32,000 bases of DNA, taken from NCBI RefSeq assembly GCF_000012925.1, contig NC_007517.1, positions 990,001 to 1,022,000 of the forward strand, read 5' to 3'. Of this stretch, positions 9,847 through 19,588 are shown piece after piece (within the stretch, counting starts at the first letter, position 1; each line of letters opens with the position of its first letter). This DNA is from Geobacter metallireducens GS-15 (lineage in GTDB: Bacteria; Desulfobacterota; Desulfuromonadia; Geobacterales; Geobacteraceae). The translations under genes and the position numbers were made by a program. The notes beneath the pieces are model-generated. The model did no database searches. It saw only the letters and a list, made by a program, of their open reading frames with translations, and was not told where the DNA came from.

Positions 9847-9938
9847 ATAAGGGGGTGGCTTGACAACGCAAAGCTTGCCTTTATCATTCTTCATGACGTT
9901 TGCTTCAGGTAAGTTCAGGGAAACGGAAGGGATTTTCA

Positions 9939-10391
9939 ATGAAAAGATCATGGGGAATATGGGCGCTGACGGCAGCACTGACCATCATGGCCCCATCGGC
10001 GGTTCCGGTTTCTCCGGCATATGCCGCCGACGACCAGTGGGTGCTCCTCGACGAGGATCCCTCCACCTCCCGCTACTATTATGACACGACCTCCATCGTC
10101 CAGGATGATGAAGATAGTGTCACCGTCCGGACCAAGGCGGTCTACACCGCAGAGGGGAAGGCCGACGCCCTTGACACCATCGGTCATCCCAAGGGGTTCG
10201 AGGACCTGGCCGACACGAATTTTTACTACACCATCAACTGCTCCGACGACATGAGCCGGCTGGAAAAGGTTGTCCACCGGGACAGCACGGGGAGGACCAT
10301 CAAGGAGTACCTCCTCGCCGGCAAGACTCCCTGGGAGCAGATCGAAGCGGATACGCGGATGAGCCTTCTACGGGATGCCGTCTGCGACTGA
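9939..10391 (+). CDS. Small secreted protein of unknown function
   Basis: The preferred start is ATG 9939 (MKRSWGIWALTAALTIMAPSAVPVSPAYA|ADD), a Sec signal peptide ending in AYA-A. Faint resemblance to the adhesin-E-like pattern (YYYD..SI ... INC). No function can be assigned. Confidence 0.55.
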   Translation: MKRSWGIWALTAALTIMAPSAVPVSPAYAADDQWVLLDEDPSTSRYYYDTTSIVQDDEDSVTVRTKAVYTAEGKADALDTIGHPKGFEDLADTNFYYTINCSDDMSRLEKVVHRDSTGRTIKEYLLAGKTPWEQIEADTRMSLLRDAVCD

Positions 10392-10654
10392 GGTTTACGG
10401 TTGCTATTCCATGCTCGCGTCGTTTGAAGCGACGGATATGTGTGGGAGACAGGTTAGGTATTCAATTGCTGTTTCTATGACGTATTCATGTTCCTTCCTG
10501 GCTGTATTTGACCTTCCTTAAGATTTTTCTCCCTCTGCTGCAATTACCGTTCTGTTGTCAAACCGCTGTCCTTGACCTGTCGAGGGGTTCCGGGCGCCGG
10601 CGCGCGTCTTATTGTTTTGCCCATCAAGGTACCGGCTACAATCGGAGAGCGGAC

Positions 10655-10737
10655 CCCGGAACAGAGGAGGTGAGAGAGATGACCCGGGGGGCGCACAAGG
10701 TGATGTTGCTGATTTTGTGAGAAAGGAGGTCCACTGA
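10655..10737 (+). promoter_or_regulatory. Conserved 5' leader of Pcc module 1
   Basis: Shares a conserved block with 15473-15554: CCGGA..AGGAGGTGAGAG..CCGGG..CGCA.A..GTGATGTTGC.GATTTTG.GAGAAAGGAGGTCCACTGA. Over the last 54 nt, 52 positions are identical. Confidence 0.6.
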
Positions 10738-11955
10738 ATGGGAATCAAATGGTTTACCCACATTCTCCTGCTTGCGGGTGTCGTCAGTGCTTCAACCGGT
10801 TTTGCGGCCCAGATCAACGGCAGGAGCTCAACGCAACTGATCTGGTTCAATGATTACTACTCCGGGCGCCAGGTGGAGCTGGTGGAGTATCTGCGGCTTT
10901 CCGTGACGAAGATCGACGAGGCCGGCAAGTTCTCCCTCTACGGTTACGGCCGCGGTTCGCAGGATCTGAACAACGGCGACGGACTGAACGGCAGACTCTA
11001 CTATCTCTATGCCGACTACCGGGGGCTGTTCGACAAGGTCGACTTCAGGCTCGGCCGGCAGTTTGTGAACAATTCCGCCGGGACCGCCCTTGTCGACGGC
11101 GGTCAGATCGACCTGAGAAACATCGGCCCCATCGGGTTCAACGTCTTCGGCGGCCGCGACGTCGTTTTCGGGATCAACGGCGAGGCGGGGCACAGCGGAA
11201 ACTACGCCATGGGGCTGTCGGCGTACCTTTCCGGATTCAGGAATACCGACCTGGACGTGAGCTGGTTCCGCAAGTGGGATGACGGTGACGTCTCCCGCGA
11301 TATCCTCGGCGCCTCGTTCAAGCAATACCTTTTCAACCGCCTGAAGCTCTATGGCAACGCCCGGTACGACGTGACGGCAGAGGTCTTCAACGAAGTGCTG
11401 GGAGGGGTCAAGTATTTCCCGATGGCCAACCTCATCTTTACCGGCGAGTGGTATCAGAGCTACCCCACCTTCGACACCACCTCGATTTACTCGGTCTTCG
11501 CCGTTAACCGCTACCAGGAGGGGGTCTTCCGGGTCGACTACACGATCAACGACATGATCGCCGTCAACGCCGGGTACAGCCGTCAGGACTATGGCGATGA
11601 CGGCATTGCCAACGTGTACGAACTGGGGTGCAGGCTCCATCCGATCAGCTCCGTGGAGATCGGGCTCGCCTACGATAAGCGCAATGGCTACGGCGGCAAG
11701 CTCGATGGCGGCCAGCTCGATGTGGCCTGGGACGTCACGAAGGGGCTCCAGCTCAGCGGCGGACTCACCTACGACGTCTACCAACGCGACTTCTATCTTG
11801 ACGGGAGCAGTCGCGAAACGGCCCAGAAATACTGGCTGGGGGGCAAGTACAAGCTTGCCAGGAATCTGCAGGCGTCTCTGCGTGTGGAAGACGCCATCAC
11901 CGCGCGGGACGAAAGCGATATCAACGGCCGCTTCGTTCTGGACTACGATTTCTAG
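10738..11955 (+). CDS. Outer-membrane porin-like beta-barrel of a porin-cytochrome complex (OmbB/OmbC-like)
   Basis: Has a signal peptide (..SASTGFA|AQ), an alternating beta-strand pattern rich in aromatic residues and Gly, and a C-terminal ..FVLDYDF ending in Phe. It is followed by two multiheme cytochrome genes. About 65% identical to the paralog at 15555..16766. Confidence 0.8.
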   Translation: MGIKWFTHILLLAGVVSASTGFAAQINGRSSTQLIWFNDYYSGRQVELVEYLRLSVTKIDEAGKFSLYGYGRGSQDLNNGDGLNGRLYYLYADYRGLFDKVDFRLGRQFVNNSAGTALVDGGQIDLRNIGPIGFNVFGGRDVVFGINGEAGHSGNYAMGLSAYLSGFRNTDLDVSWFRKWDDGDVSRDILGASFKQYLFNRLKLYGNARYDVTAEVFNEVLGGVKYFPMANLIFTGEWYQSYPTFDTTSIYSVFAVNRYQEGVFRVDYTINDMIAVNAGYSRQDYGDDGIANVYELGCRLHPISSVEIGLAYDKRNGYGGKLDGGQLDVAWDVTKGLQLSGGLTYDVYQRDFYLDGSSRETAQKYWLGGKYKLARNLQASLRVEDAITARDESDINGRFVLDYDF

Positions 11956-11970
11956 AAAGGGGGGATACCT

Positions 11971-12750
11971 GTGAGAAAATGGCTGATGTTCACTATGCTG
12001 CTGGCCATGGCGGCACTTTACTCACGGCAGGCGACAGCCGAACGCAAGGAAAACCACAAGGATTACGCCTCGTCGTCCATTGCAGAGTGCAGCAGTTGCC
12101 ACAAGGGCGAAGGGGTAGCCCCCAACCACGATTCCGACTGGGTGCGGGGACACCGCCTCGTGGCGCAGAAGCCGGGGAGGAATTGCAACGACTGTCACGA
12201 TCAGGCGTTCTGCCTCGATTGCCACACCGGCGGCGGTATCGACACCTCACCGTCCAACCAGACCTTCCGGCGCGACTACAAGCCGAAGAGCCACCGCAGT
12301 GATTTCCTCGAGATCCACCCCATCAAGGCAATGGATAATCCCCAGAGCTGCACCCGCTGCCACTCCGAGCAGAAATTCTGTATCGAGTGCCACGAGCGGT
12401 TCCGGGCGAACGATCTTCAGTTCCAGTCCCATCGCCGCCAATTCAGCGACATTCAGCTCTCGAACGTCGGGCCCAAGCACGAAGGCTTCTCGGCGACCCA
12501 GTGCCAGAGCTGCCATCCGGGCGGCATGCTCCCGACCCACAAATGGTCGGCCGACCATGCCGTGGAGGCACGCCGGAACCTTCAGGCCTGCCAGACATGC
12601 CACAGCGAAGGGGATGTCTGCATGAGGTGCCACAGTGCCCGTACCGGTCTCAAGGTGAGCCCCCATCCGCGCAATTGGGATTCGGTCAAGGGGAACTACC
12701 GGGACAAGAGCAACGGCAGAAGCTGCGTCAAGTGCCATGACCATTTTTAG
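11971..12750 (+). CDS. Periplasmic multiheme c-type cytochrome (OmaB/OmaC-like), 9 CXXCH motifs
   Basis: GTG start after AAAGGGGGGA. Signal peptide present. The CXXCH motifs counted in the translation are CSSCH, CNDCH, CLDCH, CTRCH, CIECH, CQSCH, CQTCH, CMRCH and CVKCH. Confidence 0.85.
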   Translation: MRKWLMFTMLLAMAALYSRQATAERKENHKDYASSSIAECSSCHKGEGVAPNHDSDWVRGHRLVAQKPGRNCNDCHDQAFCLDCHTGGGIDTSPSNQTFRRDYKPKSHRSDFLEIHPIKAMDNPQSCTRCHSEQKFCIECHERFRANDLQFQSHRRQFSDIQLSNVGPKHEGFSATQCQSCHPGGMLPTHKWSADHAVEARRNLQACQTCHSEGDVCMRCHSARTGLKVSPHPRNWDSVKGNYRDKSNGRSCVKCHDHF

Positions 12751-12774
12751 CCCCCAGTGAAAGGAGAGTAGCGT

Positions 12775-14970
12775 ATGTACGGTAACTCAGTACGGAGACT
12801 GCTGCTGGGCGTCTGCCTCCTTACCGTGGCCGCCATGCTGTACGGCTGCGGCAGCAGCAAGAAAGAAGGCGCCGGAGCGGGTACCGCCCAGGCAACGCCC
12901 ACCGGAAACATCCAGTCAAGTGTCCAGAGCGTGAACACCAGCGGCCCACTGCCGGTGGTCACCTTTACCCTTTTTGACGAAAACGGGAATCCGCTCGATC
13001 CGACCTCGCTGCCCGCCAACAGCGTCCGCTTCACCATGGCGCAGCTCGGTGCTGACGGCTACTACAAAAACTACATTCCCACCACCACGGCGACGCAGCC
13101 GGGGTACGACTCCGGCGGGACTTTCGCCACCGTGAGCCCGGGAATCTATACCTACACCTTCAAGACCGACATCAAGGACCCCACCAAGACCCTGGGGAAC
13201 CTGGCGTTCGATCCGACGCTGACCCACACCGTTGCTGCCCAGATTACCCGGACCGTGACCTCCGTCAGCGGCACGTCGTTCCAGCAGGCGAGCAACCCGT
13301 ACCTGAACTTCAGGCCCGACGGCGGTGCCGTGACTGCCACCCGGGAAGTCGTCTCCATCTCGGCCTGCAACGAGTGCCACGGCAGCCTCGGCCTCCACGG
13401 CGGCGGGCGGCGCGATATCGCCCTCTGCATCGTCTGCCACTATCCGGGGGTAATCGATCCGCAGACCGGCAACTCCGTCGACATGAAGGTGCTGATCCAC
13501 AAGATCCACATGGGAGAAAAACTCCCGAGCGTGGCTCAAGGTGTGGGCTATGCAATCATCGGCTTCGGCAACTCCTTCAACAGCTACTCCACGGTCGGCT
13601 ATCCGTTCATCTCAGGGGACTCCCGGATCACCGGCACGCCGATCGAATGCACCAAGTGCCACAAGCAGGGTACTGACTTGGTTGGTCGTACCTTCGGCAA
13701 GGACGTGGACAAGTGGAAGGGTGCCCCGAAGATCGCCAACTGCACCACCTGCCACGACACCACCACCTTTGACGGAAGTGCCACGCTCACGGTGAACAAT
13801 CCCCGTTCGGGCGACACCGCCCCCAACCCCGTCACCATCACATCAGCACCGCACTCCGGTGGTAATGCCACCGATGCAGTCTGTGCCGGCTGTCACATCG
13901 ATTCCACGCCGACCGATCAGTACACGCTCTCGGTTGTCGGGGCTCACACTATCCTGGAGAAGGCCCCATCCTACTATACCGGCATCAACTTCCAGATCAT
14001 CAACGTTGCCAACGCCACTGCCGGAAACGCGCCGACGGTTACCTTCAAGATCACCAAGGATGACGGTACCGCCATCTCTCCAGCAGCTCCGTCGAGCTTC
14101 AGCCTCAAGTTCGGCTACTTCACCCAGCTCGACTATCTGAACAACGGCCTTGCCAACTACGGACAACCCCTCAGCCAGGCCACGACAGCGGCAACGGCCA
14201 ACGGCGACGGCAGCTACACCATCTCCTTTGCCACCCCGATTCCGGTGGCCCTCACCGCGGGGGTGGGGGTGATCGGCCTTGAAGGGCGTATCCCCTACAC
14301 GACTCCAAAGGGGACCTATAACGTCGGCGGCACTGCGGTCCAATGGTATTTCAACCTTGCCAACGGTGCCCGGATAACTGATCAGTCCCTCCATCGCCGG
14401 AAAGTGGTCTCGGTTGAGAAGTGCAACGCCTGTCACAGCCGCCTATCGCTCCACGGTGCCAACCGGGTGAACAGCATCGAAGAGTGCGTCATCTGCCACA
14501 ACCCGAACGCCACCGACAAAGGGAGACGGGTCGGCGGACCGTTCCTTGACGGACTTGCCGAGCGGACTATCAACCTCAAGGATATGATTCACTCGATCCA
14601 TACCGGCGAAGAGCTCAGTGTCAAGCCGTACGTCGTCTACGGTTTCGGCAATACGCCCAACATCTTCTCCCACGTCCGCTATCCGAACGACCGGCGGATC
14701 TGCACCGCTTGCCACCTCGACGGGACCTTCGGTCTGCCGCTGCCGACCAACGCCCTCGGCACCACCACCGCCACCGGCGCGAACCCCCTGGACAACAGCG
14801 ATGACACCAAGATTCAGCCGATTACCGCGGCATGTACGTCGTGCCATGACGGCGCCGGCACCGCAACCCATATTGCGGACAAGGTTGTCGGCGGTGCCGA
14901 AACCTGCGTCCAGTGCCACCGTACCGGACTGCTTGTGGGGCCGGACTTCGCCCACACTCCTGTGCGGTAG
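12775..14970 (+). CDS. Outer-surface decaheme lipoprotein cytochrome with MtrC/OmcA-like 5+5 heme architecture
   Basis: Lipobox LYG|C. About 195 heme-free N-terminal residues are followed by 5 CXXCH, then about 170 heme-free residues, then 5 more CXXCH. Both pentaheme halves open with C-N-x-C-H-x-x-L-x-L-H-G. Confidence 0.8.
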   Translation: MYGNSVRRLLLGVCLLTVAAMLYGCGSSKKEGAGAGTAQATPTGNIQSSVQSVNTSGPLPVVTFTLFDENGNPLDPTSLPANSVRFTMAQLGADGYYKNYIPTTTATQPGYDSGGTFATVSPGIYTYTFKTDIKDPTKTLGNLAFDPTLTHTVAAQITRTVTSVSGTSFQQASNPYLNFRPDGGAVTATREVVSISACNECHGSLGLHGGGRRDIALCIVCHYPGVIDPQTGNSVDMKVLIHKIHMGEKLPSVAQGVGYAIIGFGNSFNSYSTVGYPFISGDSRITGTPIECTKCHKQGTDLVGRTFGKDVDKWKGAPKIANCTTCHDTTTFDGSATLTVNNPRSGDTAPNPVTITSAPHSGGNATDAVCAGCHIDSTPTDQYTLSVVGAHTILEKAPSYYTGINFQIINVANATAGNAPTVTFKITKDDGTAISPAAPSSFSLKFGYFTQLDYLNNGLANYGQPLSQATTAATANGDGSYTISFATPIPVALTAGVGVIGLEGRIPYTTPKGTYNVGGTAVQWYFNLANGARITDQSLHRRKVVSVEKCNACHSRLSLHGANRVNSIEECVICHNPNATDKGRRVGGPFLDGLAERTINLKDMIHSIHTGEELSVKPYVVYGFGNTPNIFSHVRYPNDRRICTACHLDGTFGLPLPTNALGTTTATGANPLDNSDDTKIQPITAACTSCHDGAGTATHIADKVVGGAETCVQCHRTGLLVGPDFAHTPVR

Positions 14971-14994
14971 CGTCCACGCCTACCTGAAGTAGCG

Positions 14995-15027
14995 AAAAAA
15001 GCCCCGGAGCAATCCGGGGCTTTTTTC
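14995..15027 (+). terminator. Rho-independent terminator ending Pcc module 1
   Basis: GCCCCGGA (15001-15008), loop gcaa, TCCGGGGC (15013-15020), then TTTTTT. Preceded by an A-tract. Confidence 0.8.
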
Positions 15028-15083
15028 GCCCGCCAAAGCCTCATATCTCCCCTCGCAGGCTTGTCAGGGTTGAAGAGCAATTT

Positions 15084-15110
15084 TTGTCAGGCACTGTCAA
15101 AAAATATAAT
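15084..15110 (+). promoter_or_regulatory. Candidate sigma70 promoter inside the AT-rich island upstream of Pcc module 2
   Basis: TTGTCA (15084-15089), a 15-nt spacer, then TATAAT (15105-15110). It would give a 5' UTR of about 440 nt. The spacer is short, so this is tentative. Confidence 0.3.
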
Positions 15111-15472
15111 GTATTTAGACATTTGACTTCTTTGATATAGAGTTATTGCAATAAAACTATAAAGTTCTAGTGACGAACGTTCCTGATCTATTCTCTTTGG
15201 CCAAAGTGATGGGTATTATTATCGTTTTAGTGTTGTTTCCCCCTCTGCCCCTTTCAACCATTCCTGAGCGCAACCTCTCCTTGTCGAACAATCGTTTAAA
15301 TTCTCATTCTGTCTGTGTGAACGTGGCGTCGTTTTTGCTTCATTAATAACTGAGTGCCGGCGAGCGGTCATTTTTTTGTCTACTCGTGTAAATTAGCGGC
15401 CTGCACCTTGGTTGCAACGCAGGGCGGCTGTTGAACGGAACATTCAGCTTGAATCGATTCAAGAGGGCGAAC

Positions 15473-15554
15473 ACCGGATCGAAGGAGGTGAGAGGGGCCA
15501 ACCGGGTTCGCAAATTGTGATGTTGCAGATTTTGAGAGAAAGGAGGTCCACTGA
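15473..15554 (+). promoter_or_regulatory. Conserved 5' leader of Pcc module 2
   Basis: Counterpart of 10655-10737; see that entry. Confidence 0.6.
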
Positions 15555-16766
15555 ATGGGAATCAAAGGGTTTACCCGCCTGCTCCTGCTGGCCGGCGTCC
15601 TCAGCGCATCGAGCGGTCTTGCGGCCGAGATCCACGGCAGAAGCTCGACTCAACTCTCCTGGTTCAACAACTATTATAACGACAAGAAACAGGTTGAGCT
15701 TGGTGAGTACCTGCGCCTGTCGGTCACGAACCTCGACAAAGAGGGAAAGGCCTCGATCTACGGTTACGGTAGGATCACTCAGGACCTGAACAACGGCGAA
15801 GGATTCAACAGCAGGCTCTACTACCTCTATGGCGAGTATCGCGATCTGTACGACAAGGTCGACATCCGGCTGGGACGGCAGTTTATCAACCAGGCAGCGG
15901 GATCGGCCATTATCGACGGCGGCCAGATTGATCTCAAAAATGTCGGTCCCGTCGCATTGTCCGTGTACGGCGGTCGCAACGTCATCTTCGGCCTGGACAA
16001 CGAGTCCGGTCACGGCGGCGATCTCGCTTTTGGCGCCGCTGCCTACCTTCAGGGGTTCAAGAATACCGATCTTGAGGTGAGCTGGCTCCGGAAGTGGGAC
16101 CAGTGGGACATCGCCCGCGACACCCTCGGGGCGAGCTTCAAGCAGTACCTGTTCAACAGTGTCCGGCTGTACGGCAACACGAGATTCGACCTGGTTTCGG
16201 AAACATTCAACGAAGTGCTTGCAGGCGTTAAGTACTATCCGCTCAGCAACCTGGTCTTCACCGGCGAGTGGTATCAGAGCTATCCGACCTTCGACACTAC
16301 GTCGATCTATTCGGTTTTCGCCGTTGACCGCTACCAGGAGGCGGTTTTCCGCGCCGACTACACCTTCAATGACATGGTATCCGTCAACGGCGGGTACACC
16401 TCCCAGTGGTTCGGGGAAGGCGGGCGTGGTCATATCTATCATCTCGGGACCGGCGTGCGGCCCTTCGAGCCGCTGCTGATCAATGTCGAGTTCGACAACA
16501 ACCAGGGCTACAACGGCAAGACCAACGGCGTTCTGGTCGATGCATTCTATGATGTAACAAAGAGCCTTCAGGTAGCCGGCGGCCTCGGCTATGACGTCTA
16601 CAAGCGTGATGTCATGAACAACGATGAGATCGCCCGGACCTACTGGCTCGGCGGCAAGTACAAACTGGCCAAGAGCATGACCGCCTCGCTGCGCGTGGAA
16701 AACAACGTGAATGCCAGGTACGAGAACGACACGCAAGGACGCTTCGTCTTTGACTACGATTTCTAG
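15555..16766 (+). CDS. Outer-membrane porin-like beta-barrel (second OmbB/OmbC-like paralog)
   Basis: 403 aa with a signal peptide and a C-terminal ..FVFDYDF. Collinear with 10738..11955 at about 65% identity. Confidence 0.8.
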   Translation: MGIKGFTRLLLLAGVLSASSGLAAEIHGRSSTQLSWFNNYYNDKKQVELGEYLRLSVTNLDKEGKASIYGYGRITQDLNNGEGFNSRLYYLYGEYRDLYDKVDIRLGRQFINQAAGSAIIDGGQIDLKNVGPVALSVYGGRNVIFGLDNESGHGGDLAFGAAAYLQGFKNTDLEVSWLRKWDQWDIARDTLGASFKQYLFNSVRLYGNTRFDLVSETFNEVLAGVKYYPLSNLVFTGEWYQSYPTFDTTSIYSVFAVDRYQEAVFRADYTFNDMVSVNGGYTSQWFGEGGRGHIYHLGTGVRPFEPLLINVEFDNNQGYNGKTNGVLVDAFYDVTKSLQVAGGLGYDVYKRDVMNNDEIARTYWLGGKYKLAKSMTASLRVENNVNARYENDTQGRFVFDYDF

Positions 16767-16781
16767 AAAGGGGGAGAATCC

Positions 16782-17468
16782 GTGAAGAAATGGTTAATCG
16801 CACTACTGCTCCTCGCGGCGTCGACCTTCTCAGTTCAAATGGCGTTGGCTGACAAGATGTCGCACAAGGAGTACGCTTCGACCCCCATCGCCGACTGCAA
16901 TTCGTGCCACAAGGGAGAGGGGGTTGCCCCGAACCATGACACGGACTGGCTCCGTGGGCACCGGGTTCTTGCCGGCAAGGCGGGAAGCAACTGCTACCAG
17001 TGCCACACCCAGCAGTTCTGCCTCGACTGTCACAAGGGGGGCGGGATAGATGCCAAGCTGTCGACCCGCAACTATCAGCGTGACTATGTACCCAAGAGCC
17101 ACCGGACGGATTTCATCAGCATCCACCCGATCAAGGCCCTGGACAATCCCCAGAGCTGCAACCGCTGCCACGAGCCGTCCTACTGCAACGAGTGCCACAG
17201 CCGGTTCCCGAAGGGGTCCCTGCGGATCAAGTCGCACCTGAGGAGCGGCACCACCCAGACTTTCATCTGGAACAGCGAGCATGCCACCGAGGCCCGCAGG
17301 AACCTCCAGTCATGCCAGACCTGTCACCCTGACGGCGATGTCTGCCTGAAATGCCACGCCACCAGCGGCAAGGGCGGTACCGGCATCAGCCCGCACCCCA
17401 GAAACTTTAAGGGTGGCAACATCATCGATCGTAGCGACCGGTCCTGCCGGAAGTGCCACACCCTCTAG
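16782..17468 (+). CDS. Periplasmic octaheme c-type cytochrome (OmaB/OmaC-like paralog)
   Basis: GTG start after AAAGGGGGAGA. Signal peptide present. The 8 CXXCH motifs are CNSCH, CYQCH, CLDCH, CNRCH, CNECH, CQTCH, CLKCH and CRKCH. Confidence 0.85.
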   Translation: MKKWLIALLLLAASTFSVQMALADKMSHKEYASTPIADCNSCHKGEGVAPNHDTDWLRGHRVLAGKAGSNCYQCHTQQFCLDCHKGGGIDAKLSTRNYQRDYVPKSHRTDFISIHPIKALDNPQSCNRCHEPSYCNECHSRFPKGSLRIKSHLRSGTTQTFIWNSEHATEARRNLQSCQTCHPDGDVCLKCHATSGKGGTGISPHPRNFKGGNIIDRSDRSCRKCHTL

Positions 17469-17497
17469 TCTCACACCACAACAAGGAGGTATGCCAC

Positions 17498-18970
17498 ATG
17501 AAGTTGTCTAAAAGTCTGACTCTTTTGCTGGGAACAGCGGCCATGGTTGGCCTGTACGGCTGCGGTAGCAGCAATCGCGAAAGCGCCATCGATCAGCAGA
17601 GTGCTTCCTTCCAGGCGTCGGCTGGCTGTATCAGCTGCCACGCAACGAACAAGACCTCACCGGTCACCGGTGCCCTTATCGTTGAAGAGTGGAAAAAGTC
17701 TGCGCACAACACCAGATCCGGCGCAGCCTGTACCGACTGCCACACCAACAGCGGTCACCCTGACGGCGGCACTATTGTTAAAGCAGTTCAGGATACCCAG
17801 TGCGCCACCTGCCACACGGTCGCATCGCTGGCATATCCGCACTTCGCCAACTACACCACCAGCCTCGCGGCCCAATACGTGAGCCAGACCGATGCCGCCG
17901 GCGTGCAGTGCCGCCAGTGCCACAATCCCCACGATACAACTTCTCTTATCCAGTACAACAGGGACTGGGCTGAGTCAGGCCATGGCAGTGTCGAGTATGT
18001 AGCTGGTAACGCCAGTGCCAGCAGCGTCAACTCCCACTATCCCTGGACGACAGCCAGCCGTGACGCCTGCGCCAAGTGCCATACAACTTCGGGTTACAAG
18101 CACGTCATCGCTGGTGGTACTGCTCCGTTCCTGAGCAATAACAAGAAAAACGAAGCCATAATGTGTTCGGCCTGCCATAGCGACTACAGCTGGGCAAGGC
18201 GTACTCCGGGGGCACAGACCCTTGAGTACACCTATGCAGCTGCCGCCATCACACTGGATGATGCAGGGGACTCCAATCTTTGTCTCGTATGTCACTCTGG
18301 CCGCGGCAATATGCAATCCGCAAGGCCGACGAGAAATGGCTCTACATTCCACCACGCTGTTGCCGGCGCAGTATTGTTCAGCGCGAAGACCCACGTTGGT
18401 TATGAGTTTGCCGGACAGAATTATGTGTATGCTGGCTTTAAACATGACACTATTGGCATGACTGATGGTTCCGGGCCGTGCGTCAGTTGTCACATGAAGA
18501 GCACAAAGGGTCACACCTTCGGTGTCGTAACGAAGGATTCCAATGGTGCAATCACTGCAATCAACACTATCGCTACCTGTAATGCCTGCCATGCCGGTAC
18601 ATATGCCTTGACCCCGGCAAAACTCGAAGAGGAGTCGGCCGGTTACCAGCAAGCCGGCAACTTGCTGAAAGCCAAACTGACGGCCAAGGGGATCGTAATT
18701 CCGTCTAGTGGCACCACTGCTTATATCGCAGGTCTTGCAGCCAACGACTACGGTGCATGGCAGAACTCGTTCCTTACTTCAGACGAGCCGGGCGGCTACG
18801 CCCACAATCGTAAGTATGTCAAGCGTTTGATTTTCGACTCCCTGGATTGGCTTGATAACGGCACATTCGATGGCACCATCACTCTCAGTCCTGCCGATGT
18901 TGCGGCATATCCAGAAGCAGCTGCCTGGTTTAGGGCCGACGCAACAACAGGCGTGGCAGCCCGTCCGTAA
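17498..18970 (+). CDS. Outer-surface multiheme lipoprotein cytochrome (OmcB/OmcC-like), 9 CXXCH motifs
   Basis: The preferred start is ATG 17498, 8 nt after AAGGAGG (17483-17489). Lipobox LYG|C. Nine CXXCH motifs are spread through the protein. From memory, the C-terminal ..GGYAHNRKYVKRLIFDSLDWLDNG.. resembles the OmcB family tail. Confidence 0.75.
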   Translation: MKLSKSLTLLLGTAAMVGLYGCGSSNRESAIDQQSASFQASAGCISCHATNKTSPVTGALIVEEWKKSAHNTRSGAACTDCHTNSGHPDGGTIVKAVQDTQCATCHTVASLAYPHFANYTTSLAAQYVSQTDAAGVQCRQCHNPHDTTSLIQYNRDWAESGHGSVEYVAGNASASSVNSHYPWTTASRDACAKCHTTSGYKHVIAGGTAPFLSNNKKNEAIMCSACHSDYSWARRTPGAQTLEYTYAAAAITLDDAGDSNLCLVCHSGRGNMQSARPTRNGSTFHHAVAGAVLFSAKTHVGYEFAGQNYVYAGFKHDTIGMTDGSGPCVSCHMKSTKGHTFGVVTKDSNGAITAINTIATCNACHAGTYALTPAKLEEESAGYQQAGNLLKAKLTAKGIVIPSSGTTAYIAGLAANDYGAWQNSFLTSDEPGGYAHNRKYVKRLIFDSLDWLDNGTFDGTITLSPADVAAYPEAAAWFRADATTGVAARP

Positions 18971-18990
18971 CTTCTGCCATATCCTGCATA

Positions 18991-19021
18991 AAAAGCCCCC
19001 GCTTCGGCGGGGGTTTTTTTG
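18991..19021 (+). terminator. Rho-independent terminator ending Pcc module 2
   Basis: GCCCCCGC, loop ttcg, GCGGGGG, then TTTTTTT. Confidence 0.8.
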
Positions 19022-19069
19022 TGGTAGTCTATTACTTGCCTTTGGGCAAATACACTACGGAGGACTTCC

Positions 19070-19525
19070 ATGAAAAAAATCGTTCTGTTCCTGCTTGCGC
19101 TGACCTTCACTGCTACTGCTGCCCTGGCTGCCGGTGGTCTTGACTACTTTCTCGGCAACCTCAACGTGCAGGCCCGTGCCGACATGAGCGGCTTTGCCGG
19201 CAGGCTGAGCGCCCAGTTCGGCGTGCCCGGCGTTCAGGTGAGTGCCACCCTGGGCACGGTGAAGGAGCCGGCCGATGCCTTCATGATCTACCAGTTGGGC
19301 CAGATGACCCATCAACCATACCAGAGGGTACTCCAGACCTATCAGTCCAATCGGGGAAAGGGATGGGGCGTGATTGCCAGAAGTCTCGGCATCAAGCCCG
19401 GTTCGGCCGAGTTCCACGCCCTCAAGAGGGGAGATTTCGCCCTGACCGGAAGGCCGGGCAGCACGTGGGAGCAAAGGGATGACTACGGCAAAGGGAAGGG
19501 AAGAGGGAAGGGGCACAACAAATAG
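19070..19525 (+). CDS. Small secreted protein of unknown function with a Lys/Gly-rich tail
   Basis: RBS GGAGGA upstream. Signal peptide MKKIVLFLLALTFTATAALA|AGG. Internal GWGVIARSLGIKPGSAEFHALKRG motif. C-terminal GKGKGRGKGHNK. Confidence 0.6.
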   Translation: MKKIVLFLLALTFTATAALAAGGLDYFLGNLNVQARADMSGFAGRLSAQFGVPGVQVSATLGTVKEPADAFMIYQLGQMTHQPYQRVLQTYQSNRGKGWGVIARSLGIKPGSAEFHALKRGDFALTGRPGSTWEQRDDYGKGKGRGKGHNK

Positions 19526-19588
19526 AGAAGAAAAGGGGGATCGTCCCTCTCTATTTTGAAAAGGCCCATTTGCCGGGAAGTGAAAGCC

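Follow-up and report, generated by a model that had tools for sequence, protein, structure and literature searches.

The DNA analysed here is a stretch of 32,000 nucleotides from Geobacter metallireducens GS-15 (NC_007517.1, positions 990,001 to 1,022,000; hereafter the window), and our subject is a pair of porin-cytochrome (Pcc) conduits encoded within it, in particular the surface cytochromes specified by their third genes. The initial annotation, made from the sequence alone, described two collinear three-gene modules lying 584 bp apart at 10738-14970 and 15555-18970, and the sequence bears this out. In both modules a barrel gene is followed by genes for a periplasmic and an outer multiheme cytochrome, an order shared by 78 related genome loci that we collected by running a barrel alignment against a single genome of each species (G. 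metallireducens is not among them; gene calls in these loci are crude open reading frame calls, and lipoboxes were located with a heuristic finder). The protein encoded by the first barrel gene is 100% identical to Gmet_0908, annotated as an outer membrane channel. The six window genes are therefore Gmet_0908-0913 of G. metallireducens GS-15, and the modules are the published conduits PccF (Gmet_0908-0910, ombF-omaF-omcF) and PccG (Gmet_0911-0913, ombG-omaG-omcG). Their features, in window coordinates, are as follows.

10645..10737, + strand: conserved 5' leader of module 1, 75-82% identical to 15463-15554
10738..11955, + strand: Gmet_0908 / ombF, PccF porin-like outer-membrane barrel, 405 aa; 63% identical to the module 2 barrel
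11971..12750, + strand: Gmet_0909 / omaF, periplasmic 9-heme cytochrome, 259 aa; 9 CXXCH motifs and a signal peptide
12775..14970, + strand: Gmet_0910 / omcF, predicted surface lipoprotein decaheme of the OmcA/MtrC family, 731 aa; matches to TIGR03507, PF22113 and PDB entries
12838..12870, + strand: lipobox and Pcc-slot tag of omcF, L-Y-G-C-G-S-S-K-K-E-G
14971..15554, no strand: inter-module spacer, 584 nt; the conserved module 2 leader occupies the final 92 nt (15463-15554)
15555..16766, + strand: Gmet_0911 / ombG, PccG porin-like barrel, 403 aa; 99.5% identical to its G. grbiciae orthologue
16782..17468, + strand: Gmet_0912 / omaG, periplasmic 8-heme cytochrome, 228 aa; 8 CXXCH motifs
17498..18970, + strand: Gmet_0913 / omcG, predicted surface lipoprotein 9-heme cytochrome of the OmcB-type superfamily, 490 aa; 9 CXXCH motifs
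17552..17584, + strand: lipobox and Pcc-slot tag of omcG, L-Y-G-C-G-S-S-N-R-E-S

We show that the barrel and periplasmic cytochrome of each module, here called the chassis, are old paralogues of their counterparts in the other. The barrels are 63% identical, close to the 65% first estimated, and the periplasmic cytochromes, rightly described as paralogous, are 52% identical and differ by a 31-residue indel bearing the ninth heme. The insertion lies at 12436-12528 (Gmet_0909 residues ~156-186), with the ninth heme motif CQSCH at residue 178. This insertion defines the PccF-type chassis and is present in all 9-heme periplasmic cytochromes recovered. Both periplasmic cytochromes have hydrophobic N-termini that qualify as Sec signal peptides, and both third genes encode an L-Y-G-C lipobox behind a hydrophobic leader, which predicts lipoproteins; the omcG start codon was taken as the ATG following AAGGAGG. 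The Gmet_0908 barrel has 981 homologues at E<=1e-10, mainly in Geobacteraceae, and no match in a PDB sequence search. Neither barrel gave a match in Pfam or NCBIfam, and both are listed among the pcc genes in the literature (PMC4245776, PMC11389400).

PccF and PccG have already been named, compared, deleted and phenotyped, and the locus itself brings nothing new. Shi et al. (2014) catalogued PccF and PccG as tandem clusters, with neighbouring copies <64% identical, and found the outer cytochromes of Pcc clusters not to co-evolve with the porin and the periplasmic cytochrome (PMC4245776). The heme counts of 9/10 for PccF and 8/9 for PccG and the tandem order have also been published, as has the fact that the two outer cytochromes share little identity (PMC4245776, PMC10989804, PMC11389400). 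Deletion of each module, proposed as a check in the initial annotation, has largely been done: single-gene and whole-cluster deletions were assayed on Fe(III) citrate, ferrihydrite, anodes and direct interspecies electron transfer, and assign PccF and PccG distinct, overlapping and compensatory roles (PMC10989804, PMC11389400). The functional data for Gmet_0908-0913 are these deletion phenotypes (PMC11389400), and biochemical proof of a three-protein complex conducting electrons across the outer membrane is limited to G. sulfurreducens (PMC4282303).

In the published work on PccF and PccG we found no passage that explicitly places OmcF, on its Pcc chassis, in the OmcA/MtrC family, and no description of a slot-specific N-terminal tag. 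A cassette replacement relative to G. grbiciae was not found described in the published literature, and a literature search for earlier accounts of such a lipobox or tag in proteins of the OmcB type returned nothing relevant. What is new here is modest, namely the slot tag, the recognition of PccF as a hybrid and a recent swap seen against G. grbiciae.

Families of the two surface cytochromes

The initial annotation held the third genes to be unrelated in length and layout, and this is correct: one encodes a 731-aa decaheme with a 5+5 arrangement and the other a 490-aa protein with 9 CXXCH motifs. Compared with each other, the two proteins give short heme-motif matches only (best E 7e-6 over 188 residues). 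Against the NCBIfam model of the OmcA/MtrC decaheme family (TIGR03507, cutoff 209.3), Gmet_0910 reaches 640.6 bits, with residues 54-727 covering model positions 2-672 of 672, and it contains two matches to PF22113. Its CXXCH motifs form two pentaheme groups, at residues 198, 218, 292, 323 and 370 and at residues 550, 571, 643, 687 and 711. A PDB sequence search returned entries among MtrF, OmcA, UndA and MtrC (3pmq, 6e-22; 4lmh, 6e-18; 3ucp, 6e-14; 9eov, 6e-4). Judged by these matches, Gmet_0910 is a full-length OmcA/MtrC-family decaheme.

Gmet_0913 found no relative in the PDB sequence search. It clusters with 51 other third-slot cytochromes (at least 150 bits and at least 60% coverage), its nearest relatives being 57-66% identical, and it has an N-terminal tag and a first-heme region in common with the third-slot cytochromes of 8-heme Pcc modules. 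It is accordingly classed by homology as an OmcB-type 9-heme cytochrome.

The third genes of the related loci fall into four sequence groups, namely OmcB-like (F0), F1, MtrC-type (F2) and F3, and neither F1 nor F3 gave any NCBIfam family above cutoff. In profile comparisons with hhalign, F3 aligns remotely but full-length with F0, and F1 shares the N-terminal ~190 columns only, whereas the MtrC-type group aligns with the other three over just 34-120 columns of heme motifs. We had considered four unrelated families; these comparisons replace them with one superfamily in three sequence groups and an unrelated MtrC type.

The partners of Gmet_0910 are of a different kind. The window barrels have no MtrB/PioB match in Pfam or NCBIfam, and the window periplasmic cytochromes, with 9 and 8 hemes, have no match to TIGR03508 (DmsE/MtrA family). 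Because its barrel and periplasmic partners are not of the MtrB and MtrA types, PccF is not an Mtr conduit despite its MtrC-type surface protein, and on these assignments it is a hybrid in which a Pcc-type chassis bears an MtrC-type surface protein.

Exchange of the third gene on a conserved chassis

Two chassis types occur in the related loci, one with a 9-heme periplasmic cytochrome (PccF-like) and one with an 8-heme periplasmic cytochrome (PccG-like). In a comparison of 66 modules, the identity of the barrels rises and falls with that of the periplasmic cytochromes (Spearman 0.68), and its correlation with the similarity of the third genes is weak (0.28). Numerous pairs of modules share 80-93% of their barrel residues yet have third-gene scores of 0.08-0.30, as in L041/L043 (barrel identity 0.88, third-gene score 0.08), and L058/L078 is the converse case (0.52 and 0.76). 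In neighbour-joining trees of barrel and periplasmic cytochrome, calculated without bootstrap, F2 and F3 are interleaved on the 9-heme clade, while F1 is scattered among F0 on the 8-heme clade. Module 1 fits this picture from both directions. The closest relatives of Gmet_0910 (56-63% identical; L105 63%, L081 and L083 58%) sit on barrels just 35-46% identical to Gmet_0908, and the nearest chassis that bear an MtrC-type protein (L101 71%, L005 64%) carry third proteins only 45-47% identical to Gmet_0910.

Congruent trees for all three components would have spoken for simple duplication; what we found over the 66 modules, with an unbootstrapped tree, is a third gene that tracks its chassis poorly. 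Together with the G. grbiciae comparison below, the correlations and interleaved families support the initial proposal of cassette exchange of the surface cytochrome on a conserved chassis, which in substance is published (PMC4245776). As read from these comparisons, the surface-cytochrome gene has been exchanged repeatedly while the barrel and periplasmic cytochrome were kept.

One such replacement proved recent enough to be mapped, judging from the DNA alignment with the locus of G. grbiciae (L080). Outside the third-gene region of PccG the two species are nearly identical (96% over 10000-17200, 98% over 15555-17250, and 96% again from ~19100, measured over 19100-19540). Within ~17255-19070, in contrast, identity falls to 64-84% and then to about 40-50% or to unalignable sequence. 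The segment can be described as follows.

17255..19070, + strand: segment replaced between G. metallireducens and G. grbiciae, delimited by the drop in DNA identity; comprises the 3' end of omaG, the whole of omcG and the downstream spacer

The replaced stretch is thus ~1.8 kb long with the third gene inside it. The left breakpoint lies at ~17250-17260, within omaG, and the right one at the start of the next gene (near 19070). At the protein level barrel 2 is 99.5% identical between the species and the periplasmic cytochrome 94%, against 36% for the third gene product (490 vs 576 aa). The nearest relatives of the two third genes also differ: that of G. grbiciae is closest to G. argillaceus (70%), and that of G. 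metallireducens to L054 and to L079 (62-66%), the latter a contig from Logan accession SRR22388125 whose barrels are 87% identical. The comparisons show a modular surface component whose gene is replaced through homologous recombination, with conserved chassis sequence as flanks. The G. metallireducens and G. grbiciae pair offers a natural, nearly isogenic cassette swap for the study of acceptor range. The G. grbiciae version (L080 16500-20135) contains, besides the 576-aa third gene, an extra 335-aa NTP_transf_8 gene.

The slot-specific tag and the 23-base lipobox match

The LYGCGSS shared by the two surface cytochromes is the start of an eight-residue tag that runs from the lipidated Cys, C-G-S-S-x-K/R-E-G/S. 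Among 88 dereplicated third-slot sequences the residues following Cys are G (81%), S (83%), S (58%), N/S, K (81%), E (83%) and G (78%). Information content exceeds 3 bits at +1, +2 and +5 to +7, is 2.4-2.7 bits at +3/+4 and drops to ~1 bit from +8. In the genome loci the tag is found in 63/69 third-slot cytochromes, spanning all four sequence groups, and in 2/49 other candidate lipoproteins, both of which are themselves Pcc-slot genes. It is in none of the 47 non-Pcc candidate lipoproteins nearby. This count, made in related loci as an approximation to the GS-15 genome, goes against the possibility, raised for its DNA in the initial annotation, that LYGCGSS is common on unrelated lipoproteins.

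The MtrC family provides the sharpest comparison. A search of 1.84 billion representatives with Gmet_0910 gave 2086 relatives, and in the best 150 of these 2086 the tag is restricted to the closest few. Another 52 loci came from scanning metagenomes with an alignment of MtrC-type proteins. In the combined loci, 27/30 MtrC-family lipoproteins encoded directly after a Pcc periplasmic cytochrome have the tag, versus 1/31 elsewhere (Fisher 7e-13), and the lone tagged out-of-slot gene lies at a contig edge. In-slot MtrC-type proteins pass from the eight-residue tag into MtrC domain I at once; F0, F1 and F3 additionally share the first-heme region. No module has two tagged genes. Two loci (L005 5706-11757 and L101 3858-10020) hold four-gene modules comprising a barrel, a 9-heme cytochrome, an untagged MtrC-type decaheme and an OmcB-like cytochrome, and there the fourth gene product is tagged in L005 and has a CGSDKKKG variant, outside the strict pattern, in L101. 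We show, then, that each module has, almost without exception, a single tagged cytochrome, encoded directly behind the periplasmic cytochrome gene, regardless of family. The leader shows a related trend: a 'GG' lipobox occurs in 9/14 third genes on the 9-heme chassis (F2 and F3) versus 7/53 on the 8-heme chassis (Fisher 3e-4), a weak hint that old swaps of the cytochrome body may have kept the resident leader and tag.

What the tag does can be suggested only tentatively. It may serve as an adaptor for docking or sorting, through which a lipoprotein cytochrome is paired with its chassis. With slightly more reserve still, we can picture a portable adaptor that would choose the mounted cytochrome, one per module. 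Because this adaptor would be identical across unrelated cytochrome bodies, surface cytochromes would be freely swappable, Shewanella-type MtrC-family decahemes could have been recruited to Geobacter-type conduits, and untagged MtrC neighbours would be peripheral partners like OmcA. Untagged MtrC/OmcA-family lipoprotein genes do adjoin many Pcc clusters, up- or downstream, at the following positions.

L029: 7425-9908
L070: 7396-9804 and 17860-20154
L084: 4941-7502
L087: 10810-13176
L090: 8964-11495
L104: 823-3093
L109: 1172-3697

By analogy, these untagged paralogues may be peripheral partners like OmcA of Shewanella. Separately, five metagenome loci (L082, L083, L091, L107 and L108) combine divergent barrels, 35-37% identical to Gmet_0908, with MtrC-type cytochromes that rank among those most similar to Gmet_0910 (53-58% identical); their barrel type may be a further Pcc-like chassis lineage.

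The tag also underlies a DNA match to which the initial annotation gave particular weight. The 23-mers at 12838-12860 and 17552-17574 are, as stated there, identical at 22/23 bases. The sequences were further said to diverge completely beyond this point. The 60 nt on each side are indeed dissimilar, but weak similarity extends to 36 nt (83%), because the next codons encode the rest of the tag (K-K-E-G-A vs N-R-E-S-A). Within the window the 23-mer pattern occurs at these two sites only, even with 3 mismatches allowed, against 0 expected from shuffles. No copy of the exact 23-mer was found in 241 million metagenome records, and it is therefore not a widespread DNA motif, a result that says nothing on the rest of the GS-15 genome. 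The codons at this site in three genomes are listed below.

omcF, G. metallireducens and G. grbiciae: CTG TAC GGC TGC GGC AGC AGC AAG (LYGCGSSK)
omcF, L079: CTG CAC GGC TGC GGC AGC AGC AAG (LHGCGSSK)
omcG, G. grbiciae: CTT GCT GGA TGC GGC AGC GGC AAT (LAGCGSGN)
omcG, L079: CTT GCC GGC TGC GGC AGC GGC AAC (LAGCGSGN)
omcG, G. metallireducens: CTG TAC GGC TGC GGT AGC AGC AAT (LYGCGSSN)

In the sister genomes G. grbiciae and L079 omcF and omcG match at 17-19/23 bases, a baseline that is explained by the conserved peptide and codon bias. Both already have the MtrC-type gene on the PccF chassis and the OmcB-type gene on the PccG chassis. Because these sisters, with the same pairing, encode LAGCGSG in the PccG gene, the 22/23 identity is younger than the pairing of chassis and cytochrome, and the codon comparison places its origin later, in the G. 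metallireducens line. Given the same peptide and independent codon choice, the probability of at most one mismatch is 0.9-2.2%. The extra identity would then reflect either a later micro gene conversion or parallel substitution over the conserved tag, and neither bears on how the cassettes were exchanged.

A short conversion from omcF to omcG, confined to the G. metallireducens line, covering ~8-20 bases at the lipobox and unrelated to cassette exchange, would account for the direction of change. Relative to G. grbiciae and L079, omcG shows CTT->CTG, GCY->TAC and GGC->AGC, four base changes that all go towards omcF; members of the omcF clade typically have an aromatic residue at -2 (Y, F or H, seen in the sequences labelled W, G, H, L082, L083, L091 and L108), and 'LAGC' is characteristic of the omcG subtype. 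However, the tract is interrupted by a mismatch (GGT vs GGC), and the prior perfect homology of just ~12 bases is short for homologous recombination. Moreover, Y at -2 was gained independently in OmcB-type genes of six loci (L062, L068, L070, L071, L073 and L078), and S at +3 is the commonest state. We consider this conversion somewhat unlikely.

A different challenge concerns the tag itself, which might be a generic lipoprotein linker or surface-sorting signal and not specific to Pcc conduits. G-S-rich linkers past the lipidated Cys are common in bacterial lipoproteins, and our sampling was confined to loci around Pcc clusters. Yet the 47 non-Pcc candidate lipoproteins of these loci are all untagged, and 30/31 out-of-slot MtrC-family lipoproteins are without K-E-G, though they are presumably surface proteins and often lie beside the cluster. 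A generic linker is, on this evidence, improbable.

The initial annotation itself read the 23-base identity as the recombination junction of a cassette swap in the GS-15 genome. The match between otherwise unrelated flanks, its low probability under independent codon choice, and the cleaved leaders and 'GG' lipoboxes, which follow chassis type and not cytochrome family and so hint that old body swaps retained the resident leader, could all be cited for it. A junction scar should, however, be seen wherever the pairing is present, and L080 and L079 stand at the 17-19/23 baseline, with LAGCGSG in the PccG gene. It should also keep chassis-level similarity on one flank, and the 60 nt directly upstream, including the signal peptides, are dissimilar. 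In addition, the peptide is common in the third slot everywhere, and the mapped recent exchange breaks within the periplasmic cytochrome gene. We therefore do not regard LYGCGSS as an exchange junction, which it is very unlikely to be.

Finally, plain tandem duplication, with the third genes being the same gene changed past recognition, can be dismissed, since, for all that paralogy is clear for the barrels and for the periplasmic cytochromes, and that the 5' leaders are 75-82% identical, Gmet_0910 belongs full-length to a separate widespread family (TIGR03507) in which the majority of its 2086 relatives are untagged, the profile comparison of the OmcB-type group with the Gmet_0910 group finds local heme motifs only, the module 1 identities run in opposite directions and the trees are incongruent.

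We thus return to the reading in which PccF and PccG carry exchanged third genes, the slot tag is a possible adaptor and the extra DNA identity at the lipobox came later, and we put its probability at roughly three in four. According to the Pcc literature, a porin-like barrel would sheathe the 8- or 9-heme periplasmic cytochrome, which would hand electrons to a lipid-anchored multiheme cytochrome on the surface. This third component is drawn from unrelated families, an OmcA/MtrC-type decaheme in PccF and an OmcB-type 9-heme cytochrome in PccG. Third genes are repeatedly replaced by recombination with the chassis retained, and the tag would let unrelated cytochrome bodies mount on it.

Several points weigh against this reading. 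The trees are neighbour-joining trees without bootstrap, and the gene and lipobox calls are heuristic. Contact between the tag and the barrel or periplasmic cytochrome is conjectural, and the PDB copy that we searched holds no Pcc structure. The Fisher tests ignore relatedness and, because the in-slot MtrC-type proteins are essentially one clade, independent gains or losses of the tag are few, roughly 2-4. The absence of the tag from other lipoproteins covers ~1.2 Mb of related loci only, and over 23 bases conversion and parallel change are indistinguishable. A slot tag so sharply bounded gives a simple test of how surface cytochromes and conduits are matched, and a possible handle for mounting chosen cytochromes.

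Surrounding sequence and comparison with known systems

The module leaders (~93 nt; 10645-10737 and 15463-15554) each contain a second Shine-Dalgarno-like sequence, GGAGGTGA, ~65 nt upstream of the start codon and the real ribosome-binding site. The two GGAGG motifs of the leader recur upstream of barrel genes in the loci of other species. The leader may be regulatory. Rfam at gathering thresholds gave no match anywhere in the window, so that the conserved 5' regions correspond to no riboswitch or leader known there, and scans of 10300-19200 for consensus promoters and terminators found no excess over shuffled sequence. A 13-codon upstream open reading frame in the module 1 leader was dropped, as it is not conserved in module 2. 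Directly upstream of the cluster, 9900-10391 encodes a small secreted protein that matches Adhesin_E (PF16747) weakly and whose position is kept in G. grbiciae and L079. In L079 (1304-10156) the module order is reversed, PccG-like preceding PccF-like, and a TetR-family gene lies ahead of the first module.

Among characterised conduits, the closest are OmbB-OmaB-OmcB and OmbC-OmaC-OmcC of G. sulfurreducens PCA, which share with the window modules the gene order, the kind of barrel, a lipoprotein outer cytochrome and the tandem arrangement, and have an 8-heme periplasmic cytochrome. PccG is a closer relative of OmbB-OmaB-OmcB than PccF is, and identities of 30-75% have been reported between Gmet0911-0913 and OmbB/OmaB/OmcB (PMC11389400). 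The two tandems nevertheless differ in age and organisation. The G. sulfurreducens copies are recent duplicates, 70-100% identical, with the TetR-type genes orfR/orfS between them, whereas those of the window are old paralogues (63%, 52% and unrelated third genes) with no regulator gene between. By analogy with orfS, we looked for a TetR remnant in the 584-nt spacer and found none, and there is no TetR gene in the window.

The second comparison is with MtrCAB of Shewanella. Gmet_0910 is in the same family as MtrC, OmcA and MtrF, and the placing of omcA beside mtrC resembles that of the untagged MtrC-family paralogues beside Pcc clusters in the related loci. Unlike MtrCAB, PccF has a barrel of ~405 aa without an MtrB/PioB match and a 9-heme periplasmic cytochrome without a DmsE/MtrA-family match. 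According to a 2025 ISME J paper, Desulfobacterota possess MtrC-family genes, and G. metallireducens has an uncharacterised 'Mtr pathway'; the paper describes the association of the Desulfobacterota MtrC with MtrAB as unknown, and in its accessible part we found no link between this pathway and PccF (PMC12133095). OmcF is probably the MtrC-family protein of the reported pathway. In that case it is the product of the third gene of a Pcc cluster, and the pathway is better read as a hybrid conduit.

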